Assembly: GCA_048941285.1 (NCBI GenBank)
Contig: JBHLNS010000040.1
Coordinates: 1 to 29,733, forward strand
DNA from: Promethearchaeota archaeon
Lineage (GTDB): Archaea > Asgardarchaeota > Lokiarchaeia > Sigyniarchaeales > SOKP01
Direction of reading: 5' to 3'
DNA: 29,733 nucleotides
In this document: in pieces, positions 1 to 15,489 of the stretch
How the letters are laid out: the number at the start of each line of letters is the position of its first letter
How positions within the stretch are numbered: position 1 is the first letter of the stretch
Made by a program: the position numbers and the translations under genes
The notes under the pieces: model-generated
What the model saw: only the letters and a program-made list of their open reading frames with translations
The model's database searches: none
What the model was told of the DNA's origin: nothing

Positions 1-1767
1 GAAGTAAAAGGTTTAGAAGATGATATAAGACTTCATGATTTAATTAAAATTACAAAATTTAACATAATAAGTGAAGTTATTCAAATTTATTCTGATTACA
101 TTGTAGCGCAATGTTATGACAGCACTCATAGGTTAAAATTAAAAGATAAAGTTATTAATCTTCAGAAACCATTATCTATGGAGTTAGGCCCTGGTTTGTT
201 GACAAACGTTTTTGATGGGATCCAACGACCTTTAGAGACAATATTTCAACATTTCAAAGAAGGCCAATTAGAAAGAGGAATAGATTTTCCTTCACTATCA
301 AGAACAAAAAAATGGCATTTCATTCCATTAAGAAAGCTAGGTGAAGATCTATACAGTGGAGATATTATTGGAACTGTTCAAGAAACGCAAAATATTAACC
401 ACAAGATAATGATTCCACCTGAATCTTATGGAAAGTTATCCTTTATCGTAGAAGAAGGAGATTATTCCGTCATTGATGAAATTTATTGTCTAAATGATAA
501 TAATACGGAAAAATCCTATACTTTGATGCAAAAATGGCCAATTAACAAAAGAAGACCATTTACAAAGAAAATTAAGCCCAGTGAGCCTTTAATAACTGGG
601 ACACGTATAATAGATTTACTTTTCCCTATTGCTAAAGGAGGCACATTTGGTGTTCCTGGAGGATTTGGAACAGGAAAAACAGTAATGTTACAAGCAATTG
701 CCAAATATTGTAATGCGGATATAATTGTATTCATAGGTTGTGGTGAACCTGGTAATGAAATTGCAAATCTTTTAAAGCAATTTACAGAAATTTATGATAC
801 CAAAAGTTCTAGACCATTAAGTGAACACATAATTGTAATTGCGAATACATCAAATATGCCTGTTTCTGCTCGCGAGGCTAGTCTATTCTCAGGAGTTACT
901 ATTGCTGAGTATTATCGAGATATGGGATATGATGTTGCCGTCATCGCTGATAGTACATCTAGATGGGCAGAATCCCTTAGAGAAATTTCAGGATTATTAG
1001 AAGAAATGCCTGCAGAAGAAGGATATCCTGCATATTTATCAACAAAACTCTCAAGTTTTTATGAGAGAGCTGGTGTTTTTGAAACAAAAGGTCGAGATCA
1101 CTTAGGAAAAAGAAGTATTGGCTCTTTAACAATTATAGGATCAATATCACCTCCAGCGGGAGATTTCAGTGAACCAGTTACAACAGCTACTAAAAGAATA
1201 GTTCAAGGTCTATTGGCATTAGAAGGTAGTTTATCATATTTAAAGCATTATCCAGCTATTGATTGGTTAAAATCATATTCAAATTATATTGATTCTGTTT
1301 CGGAATGGTGGGTTAAAAACGACATTAATTGGTCTGAGATTAATATAAATTGGATGGAATGCCGAAGACAGGTCGACGAGATACTATCTAAAGAAAATGA
1401 TCTTACATTTATAATTCAATTAATTGGAAAAAAAAATTTAGATGATGGTCAAAAACTTGATTTATTTATTGCTAAATTAGTTCGAAACAGCTTTTTAATC
1501 CAGAATGCATTTGAAGAAATTGATAATTTTACTGACCATAATAAATTACTGGGACTAATAAAAATAATTCTTCTATTGTACAATGAAGGAAAAGTGCGAA
1601 TAAAACAAGGTTTTAAGTTTGACGAGAGTAAAGAAGATGAAGTTCTAAATAATATTATAAAAATTACACACACTGTGCCAAATGATAATTTTAAACAAAT
1701 CAATAAATTTAAAGAAACGGTACTAAACGAAATTCTCAACAGACTTTTTTTAGATAGGGGTAAATAG
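1..1767 (+). CDS. atpA: A/V-type ATP synthase subunit A (5'-truncated; divergent paralog)
   Basis: Frame is open from base 1 (EVKGLEDDIRLHDLIKI...). Motifs: ELGPGLL, DGIQRPL, Walker A GGFGTGKT, ANTSNMPVSAREAS, DSTSRWAESLREIS, EMPAEEGYPAYL, PPAGDFSEPVT. Confidence 0.93.
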   Translation, partial: EVKGLEDDIRLHDLIKITKFNIISEVIQIYSDYIVAQCYDSTHRLKLKDKVINLQKPLSMELGPGLLTNVFDGIQRPLETIFQHFKEGQLERGIDFPSLSRTKKWHFIPLRKLGEDLYSGDIIGTVQETQNINHKIMIPPESYGKLSFIVEEGDYSVIDEIYCLNDNNTEKSYTLMQKWPINKRRPFTKKIKPSEPLITGTRIIDLLFPIAKGGTFGVPGGFGTGKTVMLQAIAKYCNADIIVFIGCGEPGNEIANLLKQFTEIYDTKSSRPLSEHIIVIANTSNMPVSAREASLFSGVTIAEYYRDMGYDVAVIADSTSRWAESLREISGLLEEMPAEEGYPAYLSTKLSSFYERAGVFETKGRDHLGKRSIGSLTIIGSISPPAGDFSEPVTTATKRIVQGLLALEGSLSYLKHYPAIDWLKSYSNYIDSVSEWWVKNDINWSEININWMECRRQVDEILSKENDLTFIIQLIGKKNLDDGQKLDLFIAKLVRNSFLIQNAFEEIDNFTDHNKLLGLIKIILLLYNEGKVRIKQGFKFDESKEDEVLNNIIKITHTVPNDNFKQINKFKETVLNEILNRLFLDRGK

Positions 1768-1938
1768 AGAATGAAATGAATTTTTTAATTAATATTTGAT
1801 TTTTGGGTGCCTTTATCCTCTTAATGGAAAAGAGATCTATTTATCCAATTGGAGTAAAGTATTTAACAGTTAAGATTAAAGATTTTGTATTTAAAGGCAT
1901 AAGGTTTAAATTAATAATAAAACCTAATTATTGAATTC

Positions 1939-2535
1939 TCATGGTTTAAACCATTCAAAGAAATAATAACTACACGTAAGAGGATTAGCGATTACAAATT
2001 TCTTTCTTACAGATGTAGCTAAACGTCCAGCTCTAACCATATCAATCGCAGTAATTTCAGAATCATGTGGTAACACATGAACCATAAAAAGAGAATGTTC
2101 AAGTCCTGGTCCTTTTTTATAAACTACGAAATCTGCTCCGAATTTTAGTCCAGGTCTAGGGATATATCCTTTTTCTCTTAAATCTTTGTAAATTATATAT
2201 TTTTCCTCAAATTTATGATGAATCTTCTTTGCTATCTCTTTAAATGTATTAGAGTCTAAGAACTTATCCTCCTTTACATCAAAAATAGTAATTTCATTTC
2301 TTTCCAGGAGAAAAAATGATTCAATTAAGGATAATTCGCTCGGTTTGGAGAAATATTCTAATCTAGGTTTATGTATACCAAGTGGAGCACCAAAAAATCC
2401 TTTCTTTACATATAAATAGGATGCATACAAAGGATTGAAAACAATCACTCTTGAATTAATGAATTTAGTTGGAATTTTATCTGGGACTTCAATATCATCA
2501 AGAGAGATTTGTTCATCCTTTACTTGGTTCATCAC
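1939..2535 (-). CDS. endA: tRNA-intron (splicing) endonuclease, catalytic subunit
   Basis: LSLIES, YKDLREKGY, GLKFGADFVVYKKGPGLEHS and RLATSVRKK; the catalytic Tyr/His/Lys triad is present. Start is GTG 2535 or ATG 2532. Confidence 0.93.
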   Translation of the reverse strand: MMNQVKDEQISLDDIEVPDKIPTKFINSRVIVFNPLYASYLYVKKGFFGAPLGIHKPRLEYFSKPSELSLIESFFLLERNEITIFDVKEDKFLDSNTFKEIAKKIHHKFEEKYIIYKDLREKGYIPRPGLKFGADFVVYKKGPGLEHSLFMVHVLPHDSEITAIDMVRAGRLATSVRKKFVIANPLTCSYYFFEWFKP

Positions 2536-2657
2536 TAAAGAGGTATTAAAAATGACTTAATAAATCTTTCAATTTTACTTTAATTAGATGAAATTATATA
2601 AATTTCAACATTATTAAGTTTAGTAATATATATTAAAAACAAATAAGGGAAAAAAAA

Positions 2658-3542
2658 ATGGTCATCCGTAAGGCTGCTGTGGCAGGTACTTTTTACCCCC
2701 GTTACAAACCAGATTTAATAAATATATTAAAAGAATCATTTCTAAATAAAGAGTTTGGTCCTGGAGAAGAACCAAAAACTCTCAATCAAGAACAAAGATC
2801 CATCATTGGGGGGGTTTCTCCTCATGCGGGGTATATCTATTCTGGATGTTGTGCAGCTTTTACTTTTTTAAATTTGTTTAAAGAAAGGATTCCTGATACT
2901 GTTATTGTATTAGGTACGGATCATCAGGGGTATGGAAAGATTGGTTTAATGGATGAAGGAGAATGGGAAACACCTTTAGGAAATATTAGTATAGATGAAA
3001 CCTTATCTAAAAAGATATTAGATAATAGTGAAATTATTAAGAATGATGAATCTGCATTTATTGGTTTTCCTTTTGGACGAGAACATAATATAGAAGTCCA
3101 ATTACCATTTATTAAATATTGCGCTCAGGACAAAAACGTTAAATTTGTACCAATAAAAATATCTAATAGAGATTTTAATGTCTTAAATCGATTAGCTAAT
3201 GATTTATCAAAAGCTATTCAATCATATGATAAAGATGTAGTAATTGTTGCCTCATCTGATATGACTCATAGAGAAGTTTATGATTCAAAACAATTAAGTA
3301 AATTTAAAGAGCGTGATCAACAAGTAATTGATGCTTTTGTCAAGGGGGAGCCTAAAAATACATTTGAAGCTGCATCAAGAACGACAGTTTGTGGACCTCA
3401 AACTATAACTTCTTTAATGATGATATGTAAGAATTTAAATGCAAATAAAGGAAAATTATTAAAATATTACACGAGTTCTGAAAGGACTGGAAATATAAGT
3501 GGATATTGCGTTGGTTATTTTTCTGGGGTTTTTATGAAATAA
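2658..3542 (+). CDS. amrB: MEMO1 family protein (AmmeMemoRadiSam system protein B)
   Basis: RKAAVAGTFYP, PHAGYIYSG, WETPLG, EHNIEVQLPF, ASSDMTH, TVCG and YYTS motifs. Confidence 0.92.
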   Translation: MVIRKAAVAGTFYPRYKPDLINILKESFLNKEFGPGEEPKTLNQEQRSIIGGVSPHAGYIYSGCCAAFTFLNLFKERIPDTVIVLGTDHQGYGKIGLMDEGEWETPLGNISIDETLSKKILDNSEIIKNDESAFIGFPFGREHNIEVQLPFIKYCAQDKNVKFVPIKISNRDFNVLNRLANDLSKAIQSYDKDVVIVASSDMTHREVYDSKQLSKFKERDQQVIDAFVKGEPKNTFEAASRTTVCGPQTITSLMMICKNLNANKGKLLKYYTSSERTGNISGYCVGYFSGVFMK

Positions 3543-3590
3543 TTCACTATTAATATTTAAAAATTATAAAGTAAAAGGTTTTGTAGTAAA

Positions 3591-4700
3591 ATGCCGGGAG
3601 ATAATGAAAAAATTGAGGATTTTGTGAGTCTTTGGAGAAAAAAGATGGAAAATGGAATTGATAGACCTAGTGTCATAAGAGAAACTTTAGATAGAATAAA
3701 AGAAGTAGAAAATGAAAATGAATTATTAAGAAACAAAATTAAAGACAACATAGAATTGATAAGTAGGACAGAAAAAATTATAAAGAACACTATTGATGAA
3801 AATGAAAGCTTAAAAGCGCAATTAAAGCAAAAAGAAATAGGTACTGGAATTAATTTAAATGATCTTCAGCAAAAGAACATTAGTCTTAATAACACAATAA
3901 TAGATTTAGAAAAAAAATTAGCCGAAAAAGAAGTGGAATTAAGAGCAAGAAGTAATGAAAAAATTGAGTTAGAAGCTAAATTAGAGGTTGCTTCAAAATC
4001 AATAGTCAAATCACCTGCTATGGATTCTGGGGCAAGTAGTGCTCTGATTGAGGATCTGAAATCTGATTTGGATAAAAAAAATGCTCAAATTGAGGAACTA
4101 CAAAATAAAGCTAATGCTTTAATTGAAGAAAATGAAGGTTTAAGCCAACAATTAGTAGATGTAGAAAAGATGAAATCTTTACCTATTGATTACGTAGTTC
4201 CTGTAGAGCAACCAAAACCATCGGTAATAAGACCTCAAACAACACAACCATCAACGGAAACCCTTGAAAGATTATGTCAAGACCTTCAACAAGATCTAAA
4301 TAAATATAAAAGAAACTTAGAAAAATTATCCAAAGAAAAAGATGATCTTCAAAAAACACTTGAAAGTGGAGGATATCAATTAGAACCTGAGGAAATTAAG
4401 GCACTAAAAAAAGAAAACGAAGCCTTAAAAGACGATCTATCACAATTACAGGAGACTTTAAAAATAAAACAAAAAGATTCTCCTCAAATCAATACGAAAA
4501 TAGATAACCTTCAGCAAGAAATAAAAGAAAGAGATCTTTTAATCAATAAACTCAAATCATCCCAGCAAAATCAGGCCTCAGTAGGCAAAGGGCCAATGTC
4601 AGGTTTGGTAGAAGACTTACAGAATAAAATAAACAAACTTAAAATAACAATAGAAGAAAAGGATAAAATTATTGAAGATTTACAAAAAAAGTCCACTTAA
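3591..4700 (+). CDS. long coiled-coil protein of unknown function
   Basis: 369 aa, E/K/L/Q-rich heptad pattern interrupted by S/P-rich linkers. Its stop codon directly abuts the next ATG (TAA-ATG). Confidence 0.8.
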   Translation: MPGDNEKIEDFVSLWRKKMENGIDRPSVIRETLDRIKEVENENELLRNKIKDNIELISRTEKIIKNTIDENESLKAQLKQKEIGTGINLNDLQQKNISLNNTIIDLEKKLAEKEVELRARSNEKIELEAKLEVASKSIVKSPAMDSGASSALIEDLKSDLDKKNAQIEELQNKANALIEENEGLSQQLVDVEKMKSLPIDYVVPVEQPKPSVIRPQTTQPSTETLERLCQDLQQDLNKYKRNLEKLSKEKDDLQKTLESGGYQLEPEEIKALKKENEALKDDLSQLQETLKIKQKDSPQINTKIDNLQQEIKERDLLINKLKSSQQNQASVGKGPMSGLVEDLQNKINKLKITIEEKDKIIEDLQKKST

Positions 4701-5684
4701 ATGAATGTCCATAATAAAAATCACCCCTCTATTATTTTTGCAGGTCATTTTGCAATTGATAACATAATAAGATTCAAGCACCGGAATAAACCTAGCCTTG
4801 GAGGAAGTGTATCCTATTGCTCTTTAGCTCTAAATAGTTATACCCAAAATGTTAAAATAGGCATAATTTCTCATATTGGTAAATTAAATTTTAATAGTTC
4901 TCTGATAGATAGGATTAAGAATGAAAAAATTGATTTAAGAGGGATTAAATATTCACAAGTGAACAACACTAATTTTGTCTTAGATTACTACGATCATGCA
5001 AGGACTTTAACTCTTAAATCGAGAAGCCCCAATCTTAAGTTTAAAGATATCCCCTTAGAATATCTTAATCATCCTCCGGATATGTTTGTGCTAGTTCCAT
5101 TATGTAATGAAATTTCATATAACTATGTAAAAAAAATTTTGACATATTTTCCCGATACTTATATCGGTATAGATTTACAGGGTTTTATTAGAAAAATTAA
5201 TGAGGAAGGGAAAGTAGCTTATATTTATGATGAGGAAATCATCTCAAATATTGAAAAAATAATTAATTTAGTTGGAAATAATTTAATTTTGAAGGGATCA
5301 GAAGAAGAAATGAATTTACTTGCCAGAGAATGCGATGATTTTGAAAAAATTATGACACATTGTAATAAAAATTACGATTATGGAATTTATATTATGACAA
5401 TGGGAGAAAAAGGGTCTATGCTCTCTAAAAAAGGAGAAAAGATCCTTAATATTCCTGCTTTTAAGCCTAAAAGAGTTGTAGATGAAACTGGTGCCGGAGA
5501 TGTCTACTTCTCGATATTCTTATATGAGTTTATTCATTCTGATAAATCCTGGGAACAAATTGAAAATGCTGCATATCTGGCTTCAGCAGCAGCATCTTTC
5601 CTAGTTGAAAAAAAAGGACCTAATGGCTTTGTAACCAAAAAAGCAGTTTTAAAAAGAATAAAAAAAAAAATATATATCAATTAG
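4701..5684 (+). CDS. PfkB/ribokinase-family carbohydrate kinase
   Basis: N-terminal GHFAID and LGGSVSY; DLQG, KGSEEE, TMGEKGS; C-terminal signature DETGAGDVY. Confidence 0.9.
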   Translation: MNVHNKNHPSIIFAGHFAIDNIIRFKHRNKPSLGGSVSYCSLALNSYTQNVKIGIISHIGKLNFNSSLIDRIKNEKIDLRGIKYSQVNNTNFVLDYYDHARTLTLKSRSPNLKFKDIPLEYLNHPPDMFVLVPLCNEISYNYVKKILTYFPDTYIGIDLQGFIRKINEEGKVAYIYDEEIISNIEKIINLVGNNLILKGSEEEMNLLARECDDFEKIMTHCNKNYDYGIYIMTMGEKGSMLSKKGEKILNIPAFKPKRVVDETGAGDVYFSIFLYEFIHSDKSWEQIENAAYLASAAASFLVEKKGPNGFVTKKAVLKRIKKKIYIN

Positions 5685-5709
5685 TCTCAAAAATTAATTA
5701 ATTAGTTTT

Positions 5710-6318
5710 ATGCATATAAATTTTCATTTTGCGGTTGGAGTTATTTTTGCATCCATTTTAAACAATTTTTTAAATTTTACAGTATTAGATTTTGTTCTAA
5801 TTGTATTTTTTTCCTTTATTTGTGATCTTGATATTTTTTTCAATAAATATGCGAAAGACCATAATCACAGGTTATTAATTACTCATTCAATAATTCCTAG
5901 TATTGTTATTATTATACTTGGATATGTATTTAACTTCCTGGCATTAATTCTTAGTGGTTTAAGCTATTCTATTCATATATTTATTGACACTTTTGATTGG
6001 GGCACAAATATTTTCTACTTTCAAAAAAAACAGGTTGGTTTTAAATTATTAATCTCTAAAGAAGAATTTGACAATTTACCTAAATATTTAGCCAATTATA
6101 GAGTACCTGCCTCCTTTTTTGATGAGAAATATTATCGTAATAAGATATGTTTGGGATCAGAGATAATAATTTTTATTCTAATGGTGGTTTTTCTAATCCT
6201 ATTTGCTTTAAATTATATTTTCATGATTTTACTGTATTTTCTGTGGTTATTTTTTCATTTACAGCGTCATTTTTCTCTTAAAAAAATTGAAAAGAACCAT
6301 AAAGAACTACACTTTTAA
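5710..6318 (+). CDS. membrane-bound metal-dependent hydrolase (YdjM-like)
   Basis: Hydrophobic helices with N-terminal H, CDLD, HRLLITHS and HIFID motifs. Confidence 0.7.
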   Translation: MHINFHFAVGVIFASILNNFLNFTVLDFVLIVFFSFICDLDIFFNKYAKDHNHRLLITHSIIPSIVIIILGYVFNFLALILSGLSYSIHIFIDTFDWGTNIFYFQKKQVGFKLLISKEEFDNLPKYLANYRVPASFFDEKYYRNKICLGSEIIIFILMVVFLILFALNYIFMILLYFLWLFFHLQRHFSLKKIEKNHKELHF

Positions 6319-6391
6319 TTAATATATAGAAGATTTTTGTAAGACATTGTATTAGTTACCCTAGAATAAAAAATTACTGAAGCCGATATCT

Positions 6392-6910
6392 ATGGATGAA
6401 AATCAGTTAAAAGTTTTTGAATGCGATTTAAACGATTCTAGTTTGTTTAATTGTATTCTGAAAGAGGTGGGTGAACCAGATATTGATACATTATTAACGT
6501 CTACTCCTTTATTGCCTGATAAATCATTTATTAATTGTTTAAATGCATCATTAGTAAATTGTTTGAGAAATAATAGAGAAGAATTAGATTTTCCTCGGAT
6601 ACAATTAAAAACTACTAAAAATGAAAGCGGAGAATTATTAATTAAACATATTAATATTATAGTTGATAAAGATTTTAAAGATGATTTAATACGTGAAAGA
6701 ATCAATCAATGTCTCAAATTTGTTAGAAAAGCTTGCACATTAAACGATTCTATTCAATTATCAATAATCCACTCCGAAGTTAAAGAAGACTTGAAGTACT
6801 ATAAGGTTGAATTGACTAAAATTAGCCAACTTCTAGAGAATATTAGAGATAATAAAACAAAAAAAGAAAATTTATTCTCACTCTTTAGAGATATCGCTTC
6901 TAACAAATAA
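6392..6910 (+). CDS. divergent OsmC-like protein with C-terminal helical extension
   Basis: Aligns by eye with the two downstream paralogs: FECDL, CLNASLVNCL, KNESGELLIKHINI, RINQCLKF, ACTLNDSI. Confidence 0.6.
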   Translation: MDENQLKVFECDLNDSSLFNCILKEVGEPDIDTLLTSTPLLPDKSFINCLNASLVNCLRNNREELDFPRIQLKTTKNESGELLIKHINIIVDKDFKDDLIRERINQCLKFVRKACTLNDSIQLSIIHSEVKEDLKYYKVELTKISQLLENIRDNKTKKENLFSLFRDIASNK

Positions 6911-6935
6911 ATTTCTCCAAATAATATGGTAAGGG

Positions 6936-7412
6936 ATGATTTTTATTATGAATGAGATGAAAGCTAAAGTTGGTATAAAATTGGATGATTTAGATTCACA
7001 AATGATATTTAAATGCGACTTAGGTAACATGAAGGTTAAAGATTGCTATATAGATGAAGAACATCATGATGAAGTAGATATGCTAGGTCCAAATCCATCA
7101 AGATTGCTCGCTTTAGGAGTTTTAGGATGTTTAAGTGCAAGTTTTATATTCTGTTTAAAGAAAAGAAATTTGAAAGTTGTTGACTTTAAAAGTGAAGCGG
7201 AAGTTACCATTGCACGGAATGAAAAAGGTTTCTGGAGAATCAAAAAAATTGATGTGAATATAGAACCAAAAATTAATGATCCGGACACTCTTAAAAGAGC
7301 GGAACAATGTTTAAAAACTGTTAAAGATGGGGTAAGTTTTTTTGAGGAATACTGTATCGTGACCCAATCTGTCCGTGCCGGTATTGAAGTAAATGTTAAT
7401 ATTGATATGTAA
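6936..7412 (+). CDS. OsmC/Ohr family protein
   Basis: GPNPSRLLALGVLGCLSASF and YCIVTQSVRAGIEV; the OsmC Cys pair is present. Start may be ATG 6948. Confidence 0.85.
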   Translation: MIFIMNEMKAKVGIKLDDLDSQMIFKCDLGNMKVKDCYIDEEHHDEVDMLGPNPSRLLALGVLGCLSASFIFCLKKRNLKVVDFKSEAEVTIARNEKGFWRIKKIDVNIEPKINDPDTLKRAEQCLKTVKDGVSFFEEYCIVTQSVRAGIEVNVNIDM

Positions 7413-7453
7413 TTTACTATTTTTATTTTTTATTAAATTAAGGTGAAATTTAA

Positions 7454-7891
7454 TTGCCAGATGAATATAAATCTGAAGTAGGTATAAGTTTAGAAGAAGA
7501 AATGATATTTAAATGCGATTTGGGGCAAATTAAAATGGATGATTTATTTATTGACGATCGGCATAAGAAATCAATTGATAAAATTGGACCAAATCCTTCA
7601 AGGCTGTTAGCATTATCGGTTCTCGGATGTATGGGGGCTAGTTTTGCTTTTTGCTTACAAAAGAAAAATTTTTCTTTATCCGATTTCGAAGGAAAAGCAT
7701 TTATTACTAGTAAGAGAAATGAACAAGGATTTTGGAGAATAAAAAAAATTGATATACATTTAAATCCAAAGATTGAAAACCAAGAAATGCGTAAAAGAGC
7801 AGATCAATGCCAGAAATTTTTTGAACAATTTTGCATTATTTCAGAATCTTTAAGAGAGGGAATTGAGATAAACACTAACTTTAATTATTAA
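7454..7891 (+). CDS. OsmC/Ohr family protein (paralog of the upstream gene)
   Basis: GPNPSRLLALSVLGCMGASF and FCIISESLREGIEI. TTG start preceded by SD-like AGGTGA. Confidence 0.85.
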   Translation: MPDEYKSEVGISLEEEMIFKCDLGQIKMDDLFIDDRHKKSIDKIGPNPSRLLALSVLGCMGASFAFCLQKKNFSLSDFEGKAFITSKRNEQGFWRIKKIDIHLNPKIENQEMRKRADQCQKFFEQFCIISESLREGIEINTNFNY

Positions 7892-7904
7892 ATCTCTCTC
7901 TAAA

Positions 7905-8903
7905 TTAATCTTTTATACCATCTTCAGTAATTGAAAAAATAGCATCACTTTCAGGAATATGAGGAGCATCAACAACTTTAACAATTCGTTGTTCACCTTT
8001 TCCTTTTCGTAAAAATAGACGTATGGTTGCTCCATGAGCTACAACATGGCCCCCAGTATGTGTTAATGGATTACCATAAAACACATCTGGTTTAGCAGAA
8101 ACCTGATTTGTAAATAAAACGGCTAATTCATCATAAGTCTCAGTTAATCTCAATAAATCATGTATATGTGTATTTATTATTTGTTGGCGTTCTGCTAAAG
8201 TTCCTCTACCAATATATTCACTACGGAAGTGACCTATAAGAGAATCAACTACAATTAATTTAATTTTTCGTTCACTTATGATTTTCGGAGCCTCTTTAGC
8301 TAATAAAATCTGATGATTACTATTATAAGCTCTTCCGACAGTTATTTTTTTTAAGACATCGCTATGATCTAAATCTTTTGCAAGTGCCATTTGAATTATT
8401 CTTTCTGGTCTAAATGTCCCTTCAGTATCTATATACAATGCACCACCCTCTAATCCGCCCTCTTCATAGGAAAGTTGGACGTTAACACACAATTGATGAG
8501 CTAATTGTGTTTTACCTGTTCTGTATTCTCCAAAAACCTCTGTAACTGCTCCTGGTTCGATTCCACCTAATAATAAATCATCTAAATTCTGACTACCGGT
8601 AGTTAATCTGTGCAAAGTTTTTCTTTTTTCCCATATTTTATCAGCTGATTTAAATCCCATTTTTTCAATATCTTGGGCAACTTTAATAATTTTTTCGGCG
8701 GTCTTTTCTCCTATTCCTGCTTCATCCATTAATTTATTTAATGGGTATAAAGCAAGAGTTCTAATTGAAATTATCCCAGCTTCTTGCAATTTTTTCACTG
8801 TTGCTTCTCCTACTCCTGGAAGGTCCTTCAATGTATAGGAGGCTTTTGATTTTGAACTTTCTTTATTGTTTGTATCTTCGGGTTGAACTTTTTTTTTTGC
8901 CAT
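7905..8903 (-). CDS. radA: DNA repair and recombination protein RadA
   Basis: N-terminal HhH (LPGVGEAT), Walker [33 protein letters not shown] and TNQV motifs. No intein. Confidence 0.96.
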
Positions 8904-8998
8904 TATATAATAATAATCTTAACTTTTATTTGAATTCCAGATAAATTTGATATTTTATCATGAAATAAATATAAAAATAAATATAAAAATAATTTTTT

Positions 8999-9664
8999 TT
9001 ATGTTTTCTCTAACCCGCTTCTTGTTATAAGAAGAAGGATTAGAAATAATACAACTAAGAATAGGAACGTTAAAGTCCAAAAACCCGCTGGATCTGGTAT
9101 CCATATATAACTCAGATATAGAAAGGGAGCAATGAATATCACAACAAAGATAATAATAATCGGTAGAGGTATTTTTTCATCTTTAATATCTAAAATTAAA
9201 GGAATTATAACTAACAATATCAAAAATGTCGCAATAATTCTGAATGTCATTGCTATTACTGGATCAAAGACAAGTGAATGCACATTAGGTAACCAGAAAA
9301 ACCAGAACTTTTCTACAGTAGCTTGTAAAGAAGGATTGGCTTCTGGTATAATAGCGCTAATAATTAATTGTATTAAAATACTGATAGCTAAATACAATAA
9401 TATCTCATTGATTTCTTTTTCTTTTTTGCGATAAATACCTATAGTATCTCGTAATATTGTAATAATCCACAATCCGAATAGAATTATATATGCAATAAGT
9501 GGATCTCCCCCCATACCCCAAAAGTAATTAACCGGTATTACAGCAATAGCATAAGCTAAATAGCCATACTTCTCATTCCTACCAAATAAATCAAAAACCA
9601 AAAAAATCATAAATATAATAAATAGAGTTATCAAAATTATTACACTAGGAATGTCAAATGCCAT
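8999..9664 (-). CDS. multi-pass membrane protein of unknown function
   Basis: 221 aa with about 7 hydrophobic segments; no recognised family motif. Confidence 0.75.
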   Translation of the reverse strand: MAFDIPSVIILITLFIIFMIFLVFDLFGRNEKYGYLAYAIAVIPVNYFWGMGGDPLIAYIILFGLWIITILRDTIGIYRKKEKEINEILLYLAISILIQLIISAIIPEANPSLQATVEKFWFFWLPNVHSLVFDPVIAMTFRIIATFLILLVIIPLILDIKDEKIPLPIIIIFVVIFIAPFLYLSYIWIPDPAGFWTLTFLFLVVLFLILLLITRSGLEKT

Positions 9665-9852
9665 GATTTTTTCAACTTTTTTTTTGGATTGAAAGATATT
9701 TTAATATTATAATATAATTTATTCTATTTATTTTAAACCTTAACTCTATATTAGACCAAAAATAAAAAAAATGCGTCAAGGTCAATTTTCTATTAGATCA
9801 AGAACTCCCTTAAACAAATAAATTGCTAAGCTAAAAATAGATAATAGGAAAT

Positions 9853-10878
9853 CTAAAATCTTATTCTAGGATCTATGATTCCATAAATGATGTCTAAAAT
9901 CAAAGTAGTGAAAATGTAAATAAAGGCTAATACAACCATGCATGATATTAATAGCCAATAATCTCTGTAGAGTGCAGCTTCGACTATTAATAAACCCATT
10001 CCAGGCAAACCAAATGTAGATTCTAATAGAACGGCTCCAGATAATACGGTGGCAACATTTAAACCAATGACAGTAATAGTAGGGATTAAAGAATTTTTTA
10101 ATGCATGGTCTTTAATAACACGTTTTCTCATACAGCCTTTAGCTTTCGCAGTTCTTACATAATCTTGTTGTAGGACTTCTAGCATACTAGATCGACTCTG
10201 TCTTACTATTCCCGCTAAAGTGACGAACGATAAACATAATATAGGTAAGATTAGATGGTATAGATAATCTGCAATTTTATAAAGTTCCCCTGCGATTAAT
10301 GCATCAATCATATAGAACCCAGTTACAAAAGGAGGATCGGGATATGCTACATTTTTATATGAAGCTATTGGAAAAATTGGAAATCTATATGCTATCCAAT
10401 ATTGTAATAACATTCCTAAAACAAAAACAGGAAAAGCAGCTCCAATAATACCAATACTTCGAAATATTGTGTCTCTCAACTTGTTTCTATGAGTTGCTGA
10501 TATAATTCCAATTTTTACACCAACAAAAGAGGCTATAACCATTGCAAAGAAAGCAAGATCTATTGTTTTAGGTAATCTAAATATAATTAAATCCCAGACA
10601 GCTGATCCTCGAGCGTATACAATAGATTCACCCCAATTTCCTGTAAAAATATCCACTAAATATTTAAAATATTGTAAATGTAGAGGCAGATTAAGTCCTA
10701 ATTGATTAACAATTTGATGATACATCCCATAGTCCTGTCTTACTTGTGCCTGCAATAACAATTGCATTACTGGATCTCCTGGCATTGCCCTTGAAAGAAA
10801 AAAGGTTATTGTCAATACACCAAATACAACTGGGATGCTAATCAGAATTCTTTTGAAAACGTATCCTAGAAAACTCAT
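9853..10878 (-). CDS. peptide/nickel ABC transporter permease (DppB/OppB type)
   Basis: MPGDP, LGLNLPLHLQY, GNWGES; EAA loop RSSMLEVLQQDYVRTAKAKG; GAVLLESTF. Confidence 0.92.
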   Translation of the reverse strand: MSFLGYVFKRILISIPVVFGVLTITFFLSRAMPGDPVMQLLLQAQVRQDYGMYHQIVNQLGLNLPLHLQYFKYLVDIFTGNWGESIVYARGSAVWDLIIFRLPKTIDLAFFAMVIASFVGVKIGIISATHRNKLRDTIFRSIGIIGAAFPVFVLGMLLQYWIAYRFPIFPIASYKNVAYPDPPFVTGFYMIDALIAGELYKIADYLYHLILPILCLSFVTLAGIVRQSRSSMLEVLQQDYVRTAKAKGCMRKRVIKDHALKNSLIPTITVIGLNVATVLSGAVLLESTFGLPGMGLLIVEAALYRDYWLLISCMVVLAFIYIFTTLILDIIYGIIDPRIRF

Positions 10879-10988
10879 TATTTGTATAAATAATTCTATT
10901 TTAATATTTTTTTATAATAATTATTGAAATAATATAGCTAAAGAGAATTAAAACATTATAACAAAACTTTAATTTAGGAAGAATAGGA

Positions 10989-12014
10989 TTAATACCTAAT
11001 TCGTGGATCTATAAATCCATATAATATATCTATTACTAAAATAGTAATTATATAAATCAAAGCTACGACAACCATACATGCATTTAAGAGCCAATAGTCT
11101 CGATACAATGTTGCATCAATTAATAATAAACCTATTCCACGTAGATTAAATGTTGATTCTAAAAGAACCGCTCCCGCTAGTGTAGTAGCAAAATTCAAAC
11201 CTATTACAGTAACAGTTGGAATCATTGAATTTCTTAATGCATGCCTTCGAATCACGTCTTTTTCAATACAACCTTTTGCTCGTGCAGTCCTTATGTAATC
11301 TTCTTGTAAAACAACTAACATGCTAGAACGAGTTTGTCTTATAATTCCCGCGAGTGTAACAAACGATAAACAAAATACAGGCATTGCTAAATGATATAAA
11401 TAATCTGGGATTAAATAGAGGTTTCCTGAAATCAAAGCATCAATCATATAAAAACCAGTTATAAAAGGGGGGTCAGCATAATCTGCATTTTTATAAGATG
11501 TTGATGGAAGTAGATTCAATTGAAATCCTAGCCAAAATTGCAAAAGCATTCCTAACACAAATACAGGAAAGGCAACTCCTACTATGCCGAGGCTTCTAAA
11601 AACAGTATCTCTAAATTTATTCCTATGAGTTGCTGATATAATTCCAATTTTAACTCCTAGATATGAAGCAATTAGCATTGAAAAAAATGTAAGGTCTAAT
11701 GTTTTAGGTAATCTAAAAATAATTAATTCCCAAACATCTGACGTTGGAGCATAACCAATAGATTGACCCCAATTTCCGGTAAAAATATCACCTATGTATC
11801 TAAAAAATTGAAGATACAGAGGAAGATTAAGTCCTAGTTCACGTGCAAATGAATTATAAATTTCTGGTGTATATCTTATCTGAGCTTGATTTAGTAGCAT
11901 CATCACTGGATCTCCAGGCATAGCTCTTGAGAGTAAAAAAGTTATTGTTAGAACTCCAAAAACTATAGGAATTGTAACTAGTACCCTTTTGATAATATAA
12001 CTCAATAAGCTCAT
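10989..12014 (-). CDS. peptide/nickel ABC transporter permease (DppB/OppB type), tandem paralog
   Basis: Same motifs and identical length (341 aa) to the neighbouring permease; EAA loop QEDYIRTARAKG. Confidence 0.92.
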   Translation of the reverse strand: MSLLSYIIKRVLVTIPIVFGVLTITFLLSRAMPGDPVMMLLNQAQIRYTPEIYNSFARELGLNLPLYLQFFRYIGDIFTGNWGQSIGYAPTSDVWELIIFRLPKTLDLTFFSMLIASYLGVKIGIISATHRNKFRDTVFRSLGIVGVAFPVFVLGMLLQFWLGFQLNLLPSTSYKNADYADPPFITGFYMIDALISGNLYLIPDYLYHLAMPVFCLSFVTLAGIIRQTRSSMLVVLQEDYIRTARAKGCIEKDVIRRHALRNSMIPTVTVIGLNFATTLAGAVLLESTFNLRGIGLLLIDATLYRDYWLLNACMVVVALIYIITILVIDILYGFIDPRIRY

Positions 12015-12164
12015 TGTTTTTATAAATCTTTACCGATTTAATAATTTTTTTAGTAACCTCTATAAGTTTATGGGGATTATTATCTGTACTTTTTTAATCT
12101 TTTGTTCTTATAAAAATAAAATCAAAATAACTGGATTGAATTTCTTTAAAATTAATGAGATATT

Positions 12165-13553
12165 TTAGATTTCAGAAATCATCTTTTCCATTTTCGAAAT
12201 CATTTCTTGTGCCTTATCTTTGTCTTCTGATTCAGCAGAAAGAAGTATTGCATTTCTATAAAGTGCAACTTTAATAATGATATAAGCATCATCTCCAATA
12301 ATCTTCAGTTCATTTATGATATCATGGTATTTATATCCATTTTCTTCTGCTAATTCTCTTAATCTATTGTGTATATTTTTTATTAAATCTGAGGAAACGG
12401 AAATAGTTTTATTAATTTTTATTCCTTTAGGAAATCCTCTAGTTAACGAGCTAAGGAGGTCGTCTTGAGTCGTCATAATTTCAAGAACTTTAAGTAGAAT
12501 GAAATTCCCATCGGAAAATGGGGCATATTCACTGAAGTAAAACTTCAATGTATCTGCAGCTGCAAAGCATGCTCTTTCTTCCCTTATTTGTCTTGAAATC
12601 TCCCCAGGATAATTTTCTACTTGTTTTAAAGGAAAATTACTATCTTCAATAAACTTTTTTACAATTGGAGATATTGAAGGGCTGGTAATGATGGTACTTC
12701 CTTTAGATTTTTGAATTCTTTTATCAAAAGTAATAAATAGCATCAATAAATCTTCATAGCTAATTTCCAAACCATTTTCATCTATTATTAATATCCTTGA
12801 ACCATCCACATCAAAACAGACACCAAGGTGACTATTTGATGCTTTTACAATATCAGCTGTATTTCTAATAGTATTAATACTAGGTAAAGGACTTGAAGAT
12901 CTTTCACGATAATGGGTATTTAATGCAATTACTTCAACACCAATATCATTGATTAAAAGGGGAGTTATTTTTCCAGTTGGGCCATAAGAGCAATCTACCA
13001 CAATCTTTAATTTAGCGGCTTTAATTTTCTTTTTGTCAACAAATTGTTGGAGTGATTTAATATAAATATCAGCAGTCTGAGGTATTGCTGTTATTTGGCC
13101 TATTGCGTTAGGATCAACTCTTCTTACTTGTTGAGGGTAATCGTTATAAGACTCAATAATTCTTTGAAGTTCAGATTGCGCTAATTCAATTCCTCCTGCA
13201 TCTAAGAAACGAATTCCCACATCTTCACTATATAAATGACCTCCTGAGAAATAAAAACCTCCACTTGCCCCAAATCGCCTTATTGTAAACTGTAACAAAG
13301 GAAAAGTACAATCTGAGAGATTTAAAAGATTAATTCCAGTAGACATCATACCTGAGGTATATGCTCTTTTCAACATCCGACTATCATTATGGTAGTCTCT
13401 CCCCATTACTATTGATTCTCCTGGTTTAAATAGGCTACCATGAATTGATCCTATTGAGCTTGATATTTCTGGTGTAAATACATAATTTGCTTTGCCAATA
13501 ATCCGACCGTTTTTTTTTAACTCATTAAGATTTTTGATTGGGTTATGAATCAT
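12165..13553 (-). CDS. alpha-D-phosphohexomutase (PGM/PMM) superfamily protein with degenerate active site
   Basis: GRD...SRMLKRA, IVVDCSYG, FDVDGSR and DG..ILLKVLE follow the PGM/PMM layout. The phospho-Ser motif (TASHNP) reads FSGGHLY. Confidence 0.85.
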   Translation of the reverse strand: MIHNPIKNLNELKKNGRIIGKANYVFTPEISSSIGSIHGSLFKPGESIVMGRDYHNDSRMLKRAYTSGMMSTGINLLNLSDCTFPLLQFTIRRFGASGGFYFSGGHLYSEDVGIRFLDAGGIELAQSELQRIIESYNDYPQQVRRVDPNAIGQITAIPQTADIYIKSLQQFVDKKKIKAAKLKIVVDCSYGPTGKITPLLINDIGVEVIALNTHYRERSSSPLPSINTIRNTADIVKASNSHLGVCFDVDGSRILIIDENGLEISYEDLLMLFITFDKRIQKSKGSTIITSPSISPIVKKFIEDSNFPLKQVENYPGEISRQIREERACFAAADTLKFYFSEYAPFSDGNFILLKVLEIMTTQDDLLSSLTRGFPKGIKINKTISVSSDLIKNIHNRLRELAEENGYKYHDIINELKIIGDDAYIIIKVALYRNAILLSAESEDKDKAQEMISKMEKMISEI

Positions 13554-13743
13554 ATAATCCTACTTTTTTAAAATTTCGATGAATTTTCAATTGGAAATTA
13601 TATATGATAAAAAGCTAAATAAAAATATATAACTTTAACGATTTTTAACTATTTAAGATTCTCTTTAATATTAAAAATATGAAAAATTATATAACATTAG
13701 CAAATTTCGATTAATTATACTTTCATAGAGATATTATAGAATT

Positions 13744-15489
13744 ATGACAGATATTTTAGGATCATTTAATTTAGTGCTTCATTCTCACCTTCCTTGGGTC
13801 CTTGGTCACGGAAAATAATGCGAACTTATCGCTCTATACGGAATATGGCCCCATGGGATGGACTGGGTTAACGAAGCGGCTGCTGAAACTTATATTCCAC
13901 TTCTTATTGAATTATATAAATTAGTTGATGATGGCTATCACCCAAAACTTACAATCGGTCTAACACCAGTTTTATGTGAAATGCTCCGTAACCCTAAATT
14001 CACTGAAGGATTCTTGGGGTATCTAGAGGAAAAATATAATGCAGCTTCATACGATTTTGAAGACTTTACTAAGAATAAATATGAAGACGGAAGAATTAAA
14101 TTAACAAAATGGTGGCAGGAATTCTATAACCGAGTACGGGATAATTTCATAAATAGATACAATAAGGACATTGTTGGTGCTTTTAAAAACTTACAAGATA
14201 TGGGACTAGTAGATATTATCACTTGTGGGGCATCTCATGGATATGCTCCATTACTTTCTAAAGACTCATCAATTGATGCTCAATTTAAAACAGCAGTTGA
14301 TAATTATAAGACACATTTTGGGAGAGCTCCTTCAGGAGTTTGGTTACCTGAGTGCGCTTATCGTCCAGGATACCGTTGGAAAAATCCTATAAGTGGAGAA
14401 GAATATAATCGACCTGGTGTAGAATATTTTCTTGCTAAAAATGGTTTAAAATATTTCTTTATTGATACTGCATTACTATTAGGAGGAAAATCGCAAGGAG
14501 TCTATGCTGCTCGGTTTCCTTTACTTGCTGAGCTGTGGAAGCAATTTGAATCCCAATATGAAGAAATTCCAACTTCTTTTGAAAAATCTCAATATGAACC
14601 ATATTTAGTGTCCACTGATCCAAGTACTCCTGGGCCTGTAGGCTTCTTTACTAGAGATGAAAAAACAGGGATTGTTGTTTGGAGCGGAGAACATGGATAC
14701 CCAGGCTGTGCAGAATACCTTGATTTCCACAAAAAACATTATCCTGGAGGGCTTCGATATTGGAAAGTTACAGAAGCTAAATTAGATTTAGGGAAAAAGA
14801 TGCTTTATTGGCCAGAAGATATACCTGGTAAACTTGATGAAAACGCAGGTCATTATCTAAATCTTATTAAAGATATTTTAAGGGACTATAACCATAAAAA
14901 CGGAACAAAGGGAATTGTAGTGGCTCCTTACGATGCAGAATTATTTGGACACTGGTGGTTTGAGGGCAATTGGTGGTTAGCTAGAGTTCTTCGGTGGGTA
15001 GAGGATGATCCGGAAGTAGAATTGACGAATTCTCGAATATATTTAGAAGCTAATCCGCCTAATAAAGTTGTTTCTGTGATTGAGGGCTCATGGGGGCAAG
15101 CTAGCTCTCATTGGGTCTGGTTAAATGAGTGGACTACTTGGACATGGGAAAGGATATATGAATGTGAAGCGAAGAGTGAAGATATCATATCAAAACACAA
15201 AGATTCAAATGATACTAATTTACTCAAAATTTTAAAACAGATGGCGAGAGAACTGTTATTATTAGAGAGTAGTGATTGGCAGTTTTTAATAACAACTTGG
15301 TCCGCTAGAGATTATGCAGAAAATAGAATTGCCTTACACTATGACAATTTTAATAGATTATATAATATGGCTATTAAATATGCGAACGGGCAAAATGTTG
15401 AAGAAGGTGAATGGCACTTTTTAGGAACAATTGAAGCTGTAGACGATATATTTGAAGCTTTAGACCTTGAGCCTTTTGCTAAAAAGTAA
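13744..15489 (+). CDS. GH57 1,4-alpha-glucan branching enzyme (DUF1957 type), interrupted by a 30-nt stop-containing insert
   Basis: ATG 13744 gives MTDILGSFNLVLHSHLPWVLGHGK* (GH57 region I HxHxP). The same frame resumes WPHGMDWVNEAAAETYIPLL, then WLPECAY (nucleophile), PYDAELFGHWWFEG (acid/base) and ESSDWQF. The ORF track starts only at 13858. Confidence 0.9.
13816..13845 (+). other. 30-nt in-frame coding gap/insert in the GH57 gene
   Basis: TAATGCGAACTTATCGCTCTATACGGAATA. Removing it restores HGK-WPHG. Matched ACGGAA(A/T)AT repeats lie exactly 30 nt apart (13808, 13838), with an internal hairpin GCGA-ACTTA-TCGC (13820-13832). Confidence 0.8.

Follow-up and report, generated by a model that had tools for sequence, protein, structure and literature searches.

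Results

A 30-nt insert with an in-frame stop in the GH57 branching-enzyme gene

The window analysed here is a stretch of 29,733 nucleotides (nt) from the Lokiarchaeal assembly GCA_048941285.1 (contig JBHLNS010000040.1, positions 1 to 29,733), with a G+C content of about 30%. Its forward strand holds, at 13744-15489, the gene of a GH57 branching enzyme into which 30 nt containing an in-frame TAA are inserted. We consider it likely that this insert, 13814-13843, is an archaeal mini-intron of the bulge-helix-bulge (BHB) type in the pre-mRNA of the enzyme. An initial annotation, made from the letters of the window, had described a start at ATG 13744, a stop at TAA 13816 and a frame that resumes 30 nt further on, and all of this is present: the start codon (13744-13746) is followed by HSHLP in the conserved N-terminus, TAA (13816-13818) comes 24 codons into the gene, and the same frame is then open to 15489. 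The next ATG (13858) lies 13 codons past the stop. When the open reading frame (ORF) beginning at this ATG was compared with Pfam, it matched PF03065 (E 2e-23, from profile position 20 of 291) and PF09210 (E 2.2e-23), so that both the GH57 catalytic domain and the branching-enzyme (BE) C-terminal domain that identify a GH57 1,4-alpha-glucan branching enzyme were found. Relative to 59 insert-less orthologs, which read GHG[V/I]WPHG, the gene is longer by exactly 30 bases. Its parts are as follows.

13744..13813, + strand: exon 1; begins with the start codon and ends at the predicted 5' cut; 23 codons and 1 further base; encodes HSHLP
13814..13843, + strand: predicted BHB-type mini-intron, 30 nt; in-frame TAA at 13816-13818; removal restores HG[I/V]WP
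13844..15489, + strand: exon 2, remaining GH57 domain and BE_C domain, including the stop codon

The ends of the gap resemble each other, as the initial annotation had pointed out: the 10-mers 13807-13816 and 13837-13846, spaced by 30, share 8 of 10 bases. Within the insert, GCGA (13820-23) is complementary to TCGC (13829-32). For the 38-mer searched for elsewhere in the genome, nothing was found beyond short chance matches, and Rfam returned nothing in the window at gathering score and nothing in 13650-13950 at E up to 10. DNA contigs of two sequencing runs cross the insert, one with 0 differences (run X1, which may be the source sample) and one with 2 (run X3). The insert is thus present in DNA contigs of two runs and, as described below, in metagenome-assembled genomes (MAGs) of five other species; it is therefore not an assembly artefact. 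Three kinds of element were set aside: programmed frameshifting is ruled out by the unchanged reading frame, an intein by the in-frame stop and a group I or II intron by the size of 30 nt.

As to its surroundings, the branching-enzyme gene (13744-15489, + strand) lies head to head with a gene of the phosphoglucomutase/phosphomannomutase family (12165-13553, - strand). Most relatives carry a second, distant GH57 gene (33-44% identity); the branching-enzyme query found none in the genome of the window.

Recurrence at the same codon in related genomes

We denote the genome of the window G000 and related genomes or loci by G and L numbers. Of 41 related genomes, 37 yielded a matched ortholog of the branching enzyme. 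The N-terminal region was read at 30 loci; 27 showed an uninterrupted GHG[V/I]WPHG and three, the window included, a stop-bearing 30-nt insert at the same codon. By pattern search, an insert at this codon occurs in 5 of the 54 genomes of the genus and in 6 of the 154 genomes of the order, where it is spread over two genera and its length is always exactly 30 nt. The ortholog alignment that the initial annotation had proposed as a check for recurrence thus came out positive: among the 65 orthologs with a readable flanking pattern, six carry the insert at the same site and 59 do not. A pattern scan of metagenomes gave five matches, none of them a branching-enzyme ortholog. Over positions 37-14619 of the window, the branching-enzyme insert is the sole large indel relative to G006, a related genome.

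On a tree that comprises 58 orthologous genes, the presence of the insert needs five parsimony changes, and the starred branches force at least four; starred sister pairs that differ in its presence are L047 versus L045 and L074 versus L070. The tree is unrooted, and repeated precise loss and spread are therefore indistinguishable.

A patchy distribution of this kind, for which the gene tree demands at least 4-5 changes, would also suit a switch at the level of DNA, in which the 30 bp are excised and restored in part of the population by way of the flanking direct repeat, whose arms match at 8 of 10 bases in G000. We regard such a switch, which the initial annotation had listed among its options, as very improbable. 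The repeat is weak in G014 (5 of 10 bases, counted by hand), and the X1 and X3 contigs carry the insert, none with a deletion of exactly these 30 bases, although contigs drop rare variants. One X3 contig does join 13723 to 13843 and so skips 119 bases; the shorter side of this joint has 24 letters and its right edge coincides with the predicted 3' cut. The joint probably derives from a diverged, intron-less relative in the sample. A DNA switch would, in addition, leave unexplained the constraint on an RNA-type hairpin and the exon-intron covariation reported below.

Purifying selection on both exons and on the insert

If the insert had inactivated the gene, whether recently or in a tolerated manner, the locus would now be broken or would yield only an N-terminally truncated enzyme from ATG 13858. 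The position of the stop, 24 codons in, and of an ATG 13 codons behind it would fit such an event, as would the degenerate splice motif of the G000 copy and the fact that no spliced RNA was seen (the RNA contig starts at 13866). The substitution patterns are at odds with it. All six insert-bearing species keep an intact exon 2 of 543 codons with no stop in any of them, and pairwise ratios of nonsynonymous to synonymous change (omega) in this exon were 0.030-0.065 at synonymous divergences (dS) of 1.2-2.1, that is, above 1 (one pair is without a dS estimate). Relaxed selection downstream of the stop, as expected of a pseudogene, was not seen. Upstream of it, the amino-acid sequence of exon 1 is kept across the six species despite many synonymous changes. 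Copies of the insert itself differ from one another by a mean of 22%, whereas the third codon positions of exon 2 differ by 42% when the same pairs are compared. These comparisons place both exons and the insert under purifying selection, and the insert is therefore not the footprint of a pseudogene, as the initial annotation had suggested it might be. A product from 13858 would, moreover, lack the first GH57 strand and HSHLP, exon 2 entering the Pfam profile only at position 20, and inserts of the same kind are found in EF-2 and RNA polymerase A', which cannot be dispensable (see below). Inactivation thus appears unlikely.

A proposed relaxed bulge-helix-bulge fold around the predicted cut sites

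The consensus fold of five copies was predicted with RNAalifold. It consists of an outer helix (13804-08/13846-50), an internal loop and a 9-base-pair (bp) hairpin (13815-23/13829-37). The outer helix is the pairing of GGTCA (13804-08) with TGGCC (13846-50) that the initial annotation had drawn between the flanks. The GCGA/TCGC hairpin that it had placed just behind the stop is likewise present, though it proves to be only the top of the longer hairpin of nine positions. In this model, the internal loop can be read as a relaxed BHB, with the following elements.

13804..13807, + strand: outer exon-exon helix, 5' strand; pairs with 13847-13850; 2 nt off the canonical register; 91.7% of cells paired
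13808..13811, + strand: central helix H, 5' strand (exon side, ACGG); partner 13838-13841
13812..13814, + strand: 5' bulge, 3 nt; predicted cut between 13813 and 13814
13815..13837, + strand: intron hairpin h'; 9 stem positions (13815-23/13829-37) and a 5-nt loop (13824-28)
13838..13841, + strand: central helix H', 3' strand (intron side); pairing and covariation across copies
13842..13846, + strand: 3' bulge region; predicted cut between 13843 and 13844; 13845-46 are extra unpaired bases

EndA cuts between the second and third base of a bulge, as the available text on cbf5 introns describes (PMC2738675). We checked the coordinates for this rule by hand on tRNA-Ser and tRNA-Cys of G000, which have the canonical 37/38 site and three of four central pairs. 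Applied to the branching-enzyme transcript, the rule predicts cuts after 13813 and after 13843; the segment between them is exactly 30 nt long, and without it each of the six copies reads HG[I/V]WP. The predicted cuts lie between the second and third bases of 3-nt bulges and would yield the correct product, and the 3' side is relaxed by its two extra unpaired bases. Hairpin h' abuts the bulges, as a flanking helix (h or h') does in BHB introns, and it is hairpin base 13815 that fixes the 5' position; the 3' position then follows from the 5' cut and the length of 30 nt. Only the cut after 13813 puts the hairpin where BHB geometry demands it, at two positions past the 5' cut and six before the 3' cut. 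This cut is the best of ten offsets in five of the six copies and ties for best in G000. The initial annotation had instead joined the halves after the AAA codon to give HGKWP; the relatives read HG[V/I]WP, and the join that fits falls after 13811-13813. The last two bases of the intron are AA, as they are in three of the inserts described below (EF-2, RNA polymerase A' and UppS).

Substitutions among the six copies follow the proposed pairing. Seven to nine of the nine hairpin positions are paired in each copy, and three pairs have changed on both sides. In the central helix, pairs 13809-13840 and 13810-13839 are Watson-Crick, and 13809/13840 covaries (C-G in five copies, U-A in one). For the structure as a whole, 87.5% of cells are paired across the six copies, compared with 28-49% when the partners are slid, and four pairs have changed on both sides, a number that 1 of 500 shuffles reaches. 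The effect extends into the codons of exon 1: the wobble base of the His codon matches its intron partner in all six copies (C with G five times, U with A once), while the same codon in insert-less orthologs is CAT in 51 and CAC in 8. The wobble base of the Gly codon in the outer helix is a pyrimidine in all five insert bearers with a GGN codon, versus 14 of the 41 GGN codons in orthologs that lack the insert.

In the copy from the other genus (L074:941-987, the same as L223), an A-U pair of the stem has turned into U-A; the TAA of the 5' arm thereby becomes TTA and the 3' arm gains an in-frame TAA, which may be chance. The idea of selection for in-frame stops in the inserts was dropped; by our estimate, a stop is likelier to be present than absent in 30 AT-rich bases.

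The same substitutions bear on stop-codon readthrough, by which the insert would be translated as a loop of 10 residues. The insert is in frame and a multiple of three in length, as readthrough needs, but the peptide it encodes is not conserved: L074 differs at most positions and has its stop at another codon, and the changes track base pairing, not codon structure. Two stops in the RNA polymerase A' insert and the 28-nt length of the L11 insert, both described below, add to the case against readthrough, which we hold to be extremely unlikely.

Programmed bypassing, as known from T4 gene 60 and the mitochondrial byps, had been the first option of the initial annotation. A ribosome would hop over the 30 nt from GGA 13810-12 to GGA 13840-42, codons that match in G000, with a stop close behind the first and a hairpin in the gap. 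Matching of the two codons does not hold up among the orthologs, being GGA/GGA in three of six copies, GGA/GAA in two and GGA/AGA in one. The stop follows the take-off codon directly in none of the six; one sense codon stands between them in five copies, a departure from gene 60 that the initial annotation had itself recorded, and in L074 the stop comes seven codons later. The inserts of other genes do not suit a hop either, since RNA polymerase A' has no codon match across its gap, and a GAU-to-GAU hop in EF-2 would leave the product one Asp short of the relative's protein. Bypassing is accordingly a most improbable account of this gene.

To compare the mini-intron copies with one another, we used a BHB score defined as twice the number of central pairs plus the contiguous stem. 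The scores are:

G014: 15
L074: 14
G042: 13
G024: 9
G055: 8
G000: 7

None of 720 decoy sites scored 14 or more. Out of four pairs in the central helix, three are standard in G014 and L074, which also have 8-9 contiguous stem pairs, and two of four in G000, G042, G055 and G024. The initial annotation had been unable to build a canonical BHB, and for G000 that was fair: this copy has two of four central pairs, and a strict canonical scan of 13701-13900 (four of four central pairs, stem of at least 4, outer helix of at least 3) found nothing.

Several observations weigh against a mini-intron at this locus. The G000 copy, with its score of 7, is the weakest of the six and lies inside the decoy background; besides its two missing central pairs, it has a 2x2 internal mismatch in the stem. 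The two extra unpaired bases between the 3' bulge and the outer helix make the motif relaxed, not canonical, and relaxed BHB-like motifs are frequent by chance according to the available part of the literature. Single-sequence folds of 70 nt were no stabler than shuffles (z -0.87 to +1.05). The six copies are related, so that the covariation figures overstate their independence. Two metatranscriptome runs contain only small portions of the sequence, and the sole RNA contig that aligned covers 13866-14105 and starts downstream of the junction. The G000 motif would not stand by itself as evidence of a BHB. The G000 copy is the most degenerate of the six, and its splicing may therefore be inefficient.

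Splicing machinery encoded in the genome

The initial annotation had also assigned a splicing endonuclease to another ORF of the window, and the assignment is borne out by Pfam:

1939..2535, - strand: tRNA-splicing endonuclease EndA, probably the catalytic subunit; PF01974 (E 4.4e-30), PF02778

Residues 17-197 of this protein match, as the best among solved structures, 3p1z_B and 3ajv_B, which we take to be catalytic subunits of a crenarchaeal two-subunit enzyme. A second EndA homolog, encoded on contig C68, is by eye without a His at the catalytic place, and RtcB is encoded in one copy on contig C69 (E 1.6e-170). Both an endonuclease, with two homologs, and an RNA ligase are thus encoded in the genome. 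The available text of one study describes for Asgard archaea a two-subunit EndA with an L1 loop linked to a broad substrate range (PMC5829648).

With these components, the mini-intron could be removed as follows. In the transcript, the central helix would arise by pairing of exon bases 13808-13811 with intron bases 13838-13841, and it would be followed on the 5' side by the 3-nt bulge 13812-14 and the intron hairpin 13815-37, and on the 3' side by the bulge from 13842. The splicing endonuclease, with its catalytic subunit from 1939-2535 and its second subunit from contig C68, would cut between the second and third bulge bases, after 13813 and after 13843. RtcB would then ligate the exons, and the spliced mRNA would read GHG-I-WPHG, as uninterrupted orthologs do. 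For the branching-enzyme transcript we infer cleavage, ligation and their efficiency from sequence.

Inserts of the same layout in other genes

We sought further inserts by a comparison that makes no use of the motif, chosen to avoid motif-driven circularity. G000 was compared with 2.4 Mb of the complete relative G006, both by tblastn searches with open frames and by gapped blastn, and the aligned columns came to about 2.02 million; introns common to both genomes are invisible to such a pairwise comparison. Indels of 18-60 nt with well-aligned flanks numbered 66; the BHB score was at least 14 in five of them and 13 in one more. Of these six top-scoring indels, five interrupt protein-coding genes and one a tRNA gene. 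Those in protein-coding genes are:

C1:142733-142762 (L214:1233-1262), + strand: EF-2 insert, 30 nt; in-frame TAA; four of four central pairs, 3-nt bulges, 9-bp stem, 5-nt loop
C1:98368-98397 (L213:1368-1397), + strand: RNA polymerase A' (RpoA') insert, 30 nt; four of four central pairs, 7-bp stem, two in-frame stops
L166:9379-9406, + strand: G006 L11 insert, 28 nt; frame-shifting unless removed
L185:5072-5101, + strand: G006 insert in UppS (undecaprenyl diphosphate synthase), 30 nt
L191:1948-1977, - strand: G006 insert in a LOR-family gene, 30 nt

The RpoA' insert comes directly after a GHFGH motif. In EF-2 and RpoA', the canonical cuts give exactly the protein of the relative across the junction. 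The three inserts of G006 have no counterpart at those sites in G000; excision at the canonical cuts brings back a single long reading frame through each G006 junction. In all five genes, exon 2 starts in the middle of a Pfam domain. Of the 54 genomes of the genus, at least 13 carry the EF-2 insert and at least 3 the RpoA' insert, both being lower bounds limited by the search pattern; compensatory changes occur in these two inserts as well, one of them between an exon Gly wobble base and the intron strand.

The branching-enzyme insert and these sister inserts have one layout in common: 1 nt is followed by a stem arm of 7-9, a loop, the other arm, 4 nt that complement the exon, and 2 nt. In G000, the T-loop of a tRNA is interrupted by a 30-nt intron with this layout (contig C52 near 77428, - strand). 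The predicted branching-enzyme intron belongs to a class of 28-30 nt and a single layout that is also found in the EF-2, RNA polymerase A' and tRNA genes of G000. Run on G000, which is 94% complete, ARAGORN reported 13 tRNA genes, seven of them with introns (one being a spurious call of 1953 nt), and the tRNA genes of this genome seem to be heavily interrupted.

Two other approaches were less useful. A genome-wide scan for structures whose removal restores an ORF gave 122,445 structural candidates, 4,011 that restored an ORF and 75 after tightening, mostly at gene junctions; it was too unspecific and was replaced by the homology census above. A MAFFT alignment across introns of different genes was broken in its register by gaps, and no covariance model was made from it. 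On a separate matter, G006 has four open frames, paralogs of one another, each of which matches a pair of neighbouring pieces at C15 ~8055-8095 (+ strand) that are separated by 10 additional bases; a frameshift in a repeated family, perhaps the gene of a mobile element, would be one explanation.

Discussion

The initial annotation had weighed recoding, splicing and DNA excision against a recent inactivating insertion. Its micro-intron reading is the part that has gained ground: orthologous copies reach three of four central pairs, and canonical 30-nt examples occur in other genes of the same genome. Bypassing and an inactivating footprint have lost it on the evidence given above, and excision at the level of DNA is without support. 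Beyond the single gene, we lean, with more reserve, towards the view that Lokiarchaeal genomes harbour a family of BHB mini-introns of about 30 nt that colonise both protein-coding and tRNA genes, including those for the essential RNA polymerase A', EF-2 and L11, and that are gained or lost between close species.

If these inserts are spliced, gene callers will have split or discarded real genes in Asgard MAGs, including the phylogenetic markers EF-2 and RpoA', and mRNA splicing by EndA and RtcB would amount to more than an oddity of one gene. A natural system for studying how unspliced mRNA is spared translation where there is no nucleus would then exist in the lineage nearest to eukaryotes. 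Should the family as a whole prove true, the closest prokaryotic relatives of eukaryotes would routinely splice mRNAs with the tRNA-splicing machinery, and some means would be needed to hold ribosomes off unspliced transcripts. More speculatively, a weak splice motif could tie glycogen branching to splicing efficiency.

The literature searched, supplements aside, contained no account of BHB introns within the protein-coding genes of Asgard archaea. The available text of a 2020 study gives cbf5 of Crenarchaeota as the only BHB intron reported in archaeal mRNA until then, besides the 5' untranslated region (5'UTR) case of that study itself (PMC7714728). BHB introns in mRNA are thus known as such, from cbf5 and from one 5'UTR; the part that merits most attention is the wider pattern of BHB-type inserts in several genes, essential ones included.

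With T4 gene 60 and the mitochondrial byps, the branching-enzyme gene shares a short, stop-containing gap with a hairpin in an otherwise intact gene. It differs in that its copies do not conserve the features which mark those systems, namely identical codons for take-off and landing and a stop next to the take-off codon.

Another parallel is the unconventional mRNA splicing of XBP1/HAC1 in eukaryotes, where IRE1 cuts out a small coding-region intron (26 nt in XBP1) and a tRNA ligase, which in animals is RtcB, joins the exons. The likeness would lie in the small intron within a coding region, the protein endonuclease and the joining by a tRNA ligase; XBP1/HAC1 differs in its use of IRE1 and of twin stem-loops, and in being a regulated stress switch that changes the frame.

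Within the archaea, the cbf5 pre-mRNA intron of Crenarchaeota was reportedly described by Watanabe in 2002. The available text of a later study describes this intron as having a mostly unconventional BHB, a hetero-oligomeric EndA and a patchy distribution that was read as gain and loss (Yokobori, 2009; PMC2738675). Like cbf5, the branching-enzyme gene would have a short intron within a protein-coding gene, a relaxed BHB and a cut between the second and third bulge bases by a hetero-oligomeric EndA, and the distribution of its insert is patchy. Unlike cbf5, the host is an Asgard (Lokiarchaeal) archaeon and the gene that of a metabolic enzyme, and the introns are of a uniform ~30 nt with several per genome. 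Splicing of cbf5 was shown by complementary DNA, whereas that of the branching-enzyme transcript is deduced from comparative evidence.

BHB introns are abundant in the tRNA genes of Asgard archaea, as the available texts of two studies state (PMC11291895; 10.64898/2026.10.13.758758). The branching-enzyme insert has the same motif geometry as those introns and presumably the same enzymes, but its host is the coding region of an mRNA; removal must therefore precede translation or compete with it. A further comparison is with HVO_1309 of Haloferax volcanii, where, according to the available text, EndA cleaves an mRNA at a BHB intron in the 5'UTR (PMC7714728): that intron lies in an untranslated leader, whereas the branching-enzyme insert lies inside the reading frame.

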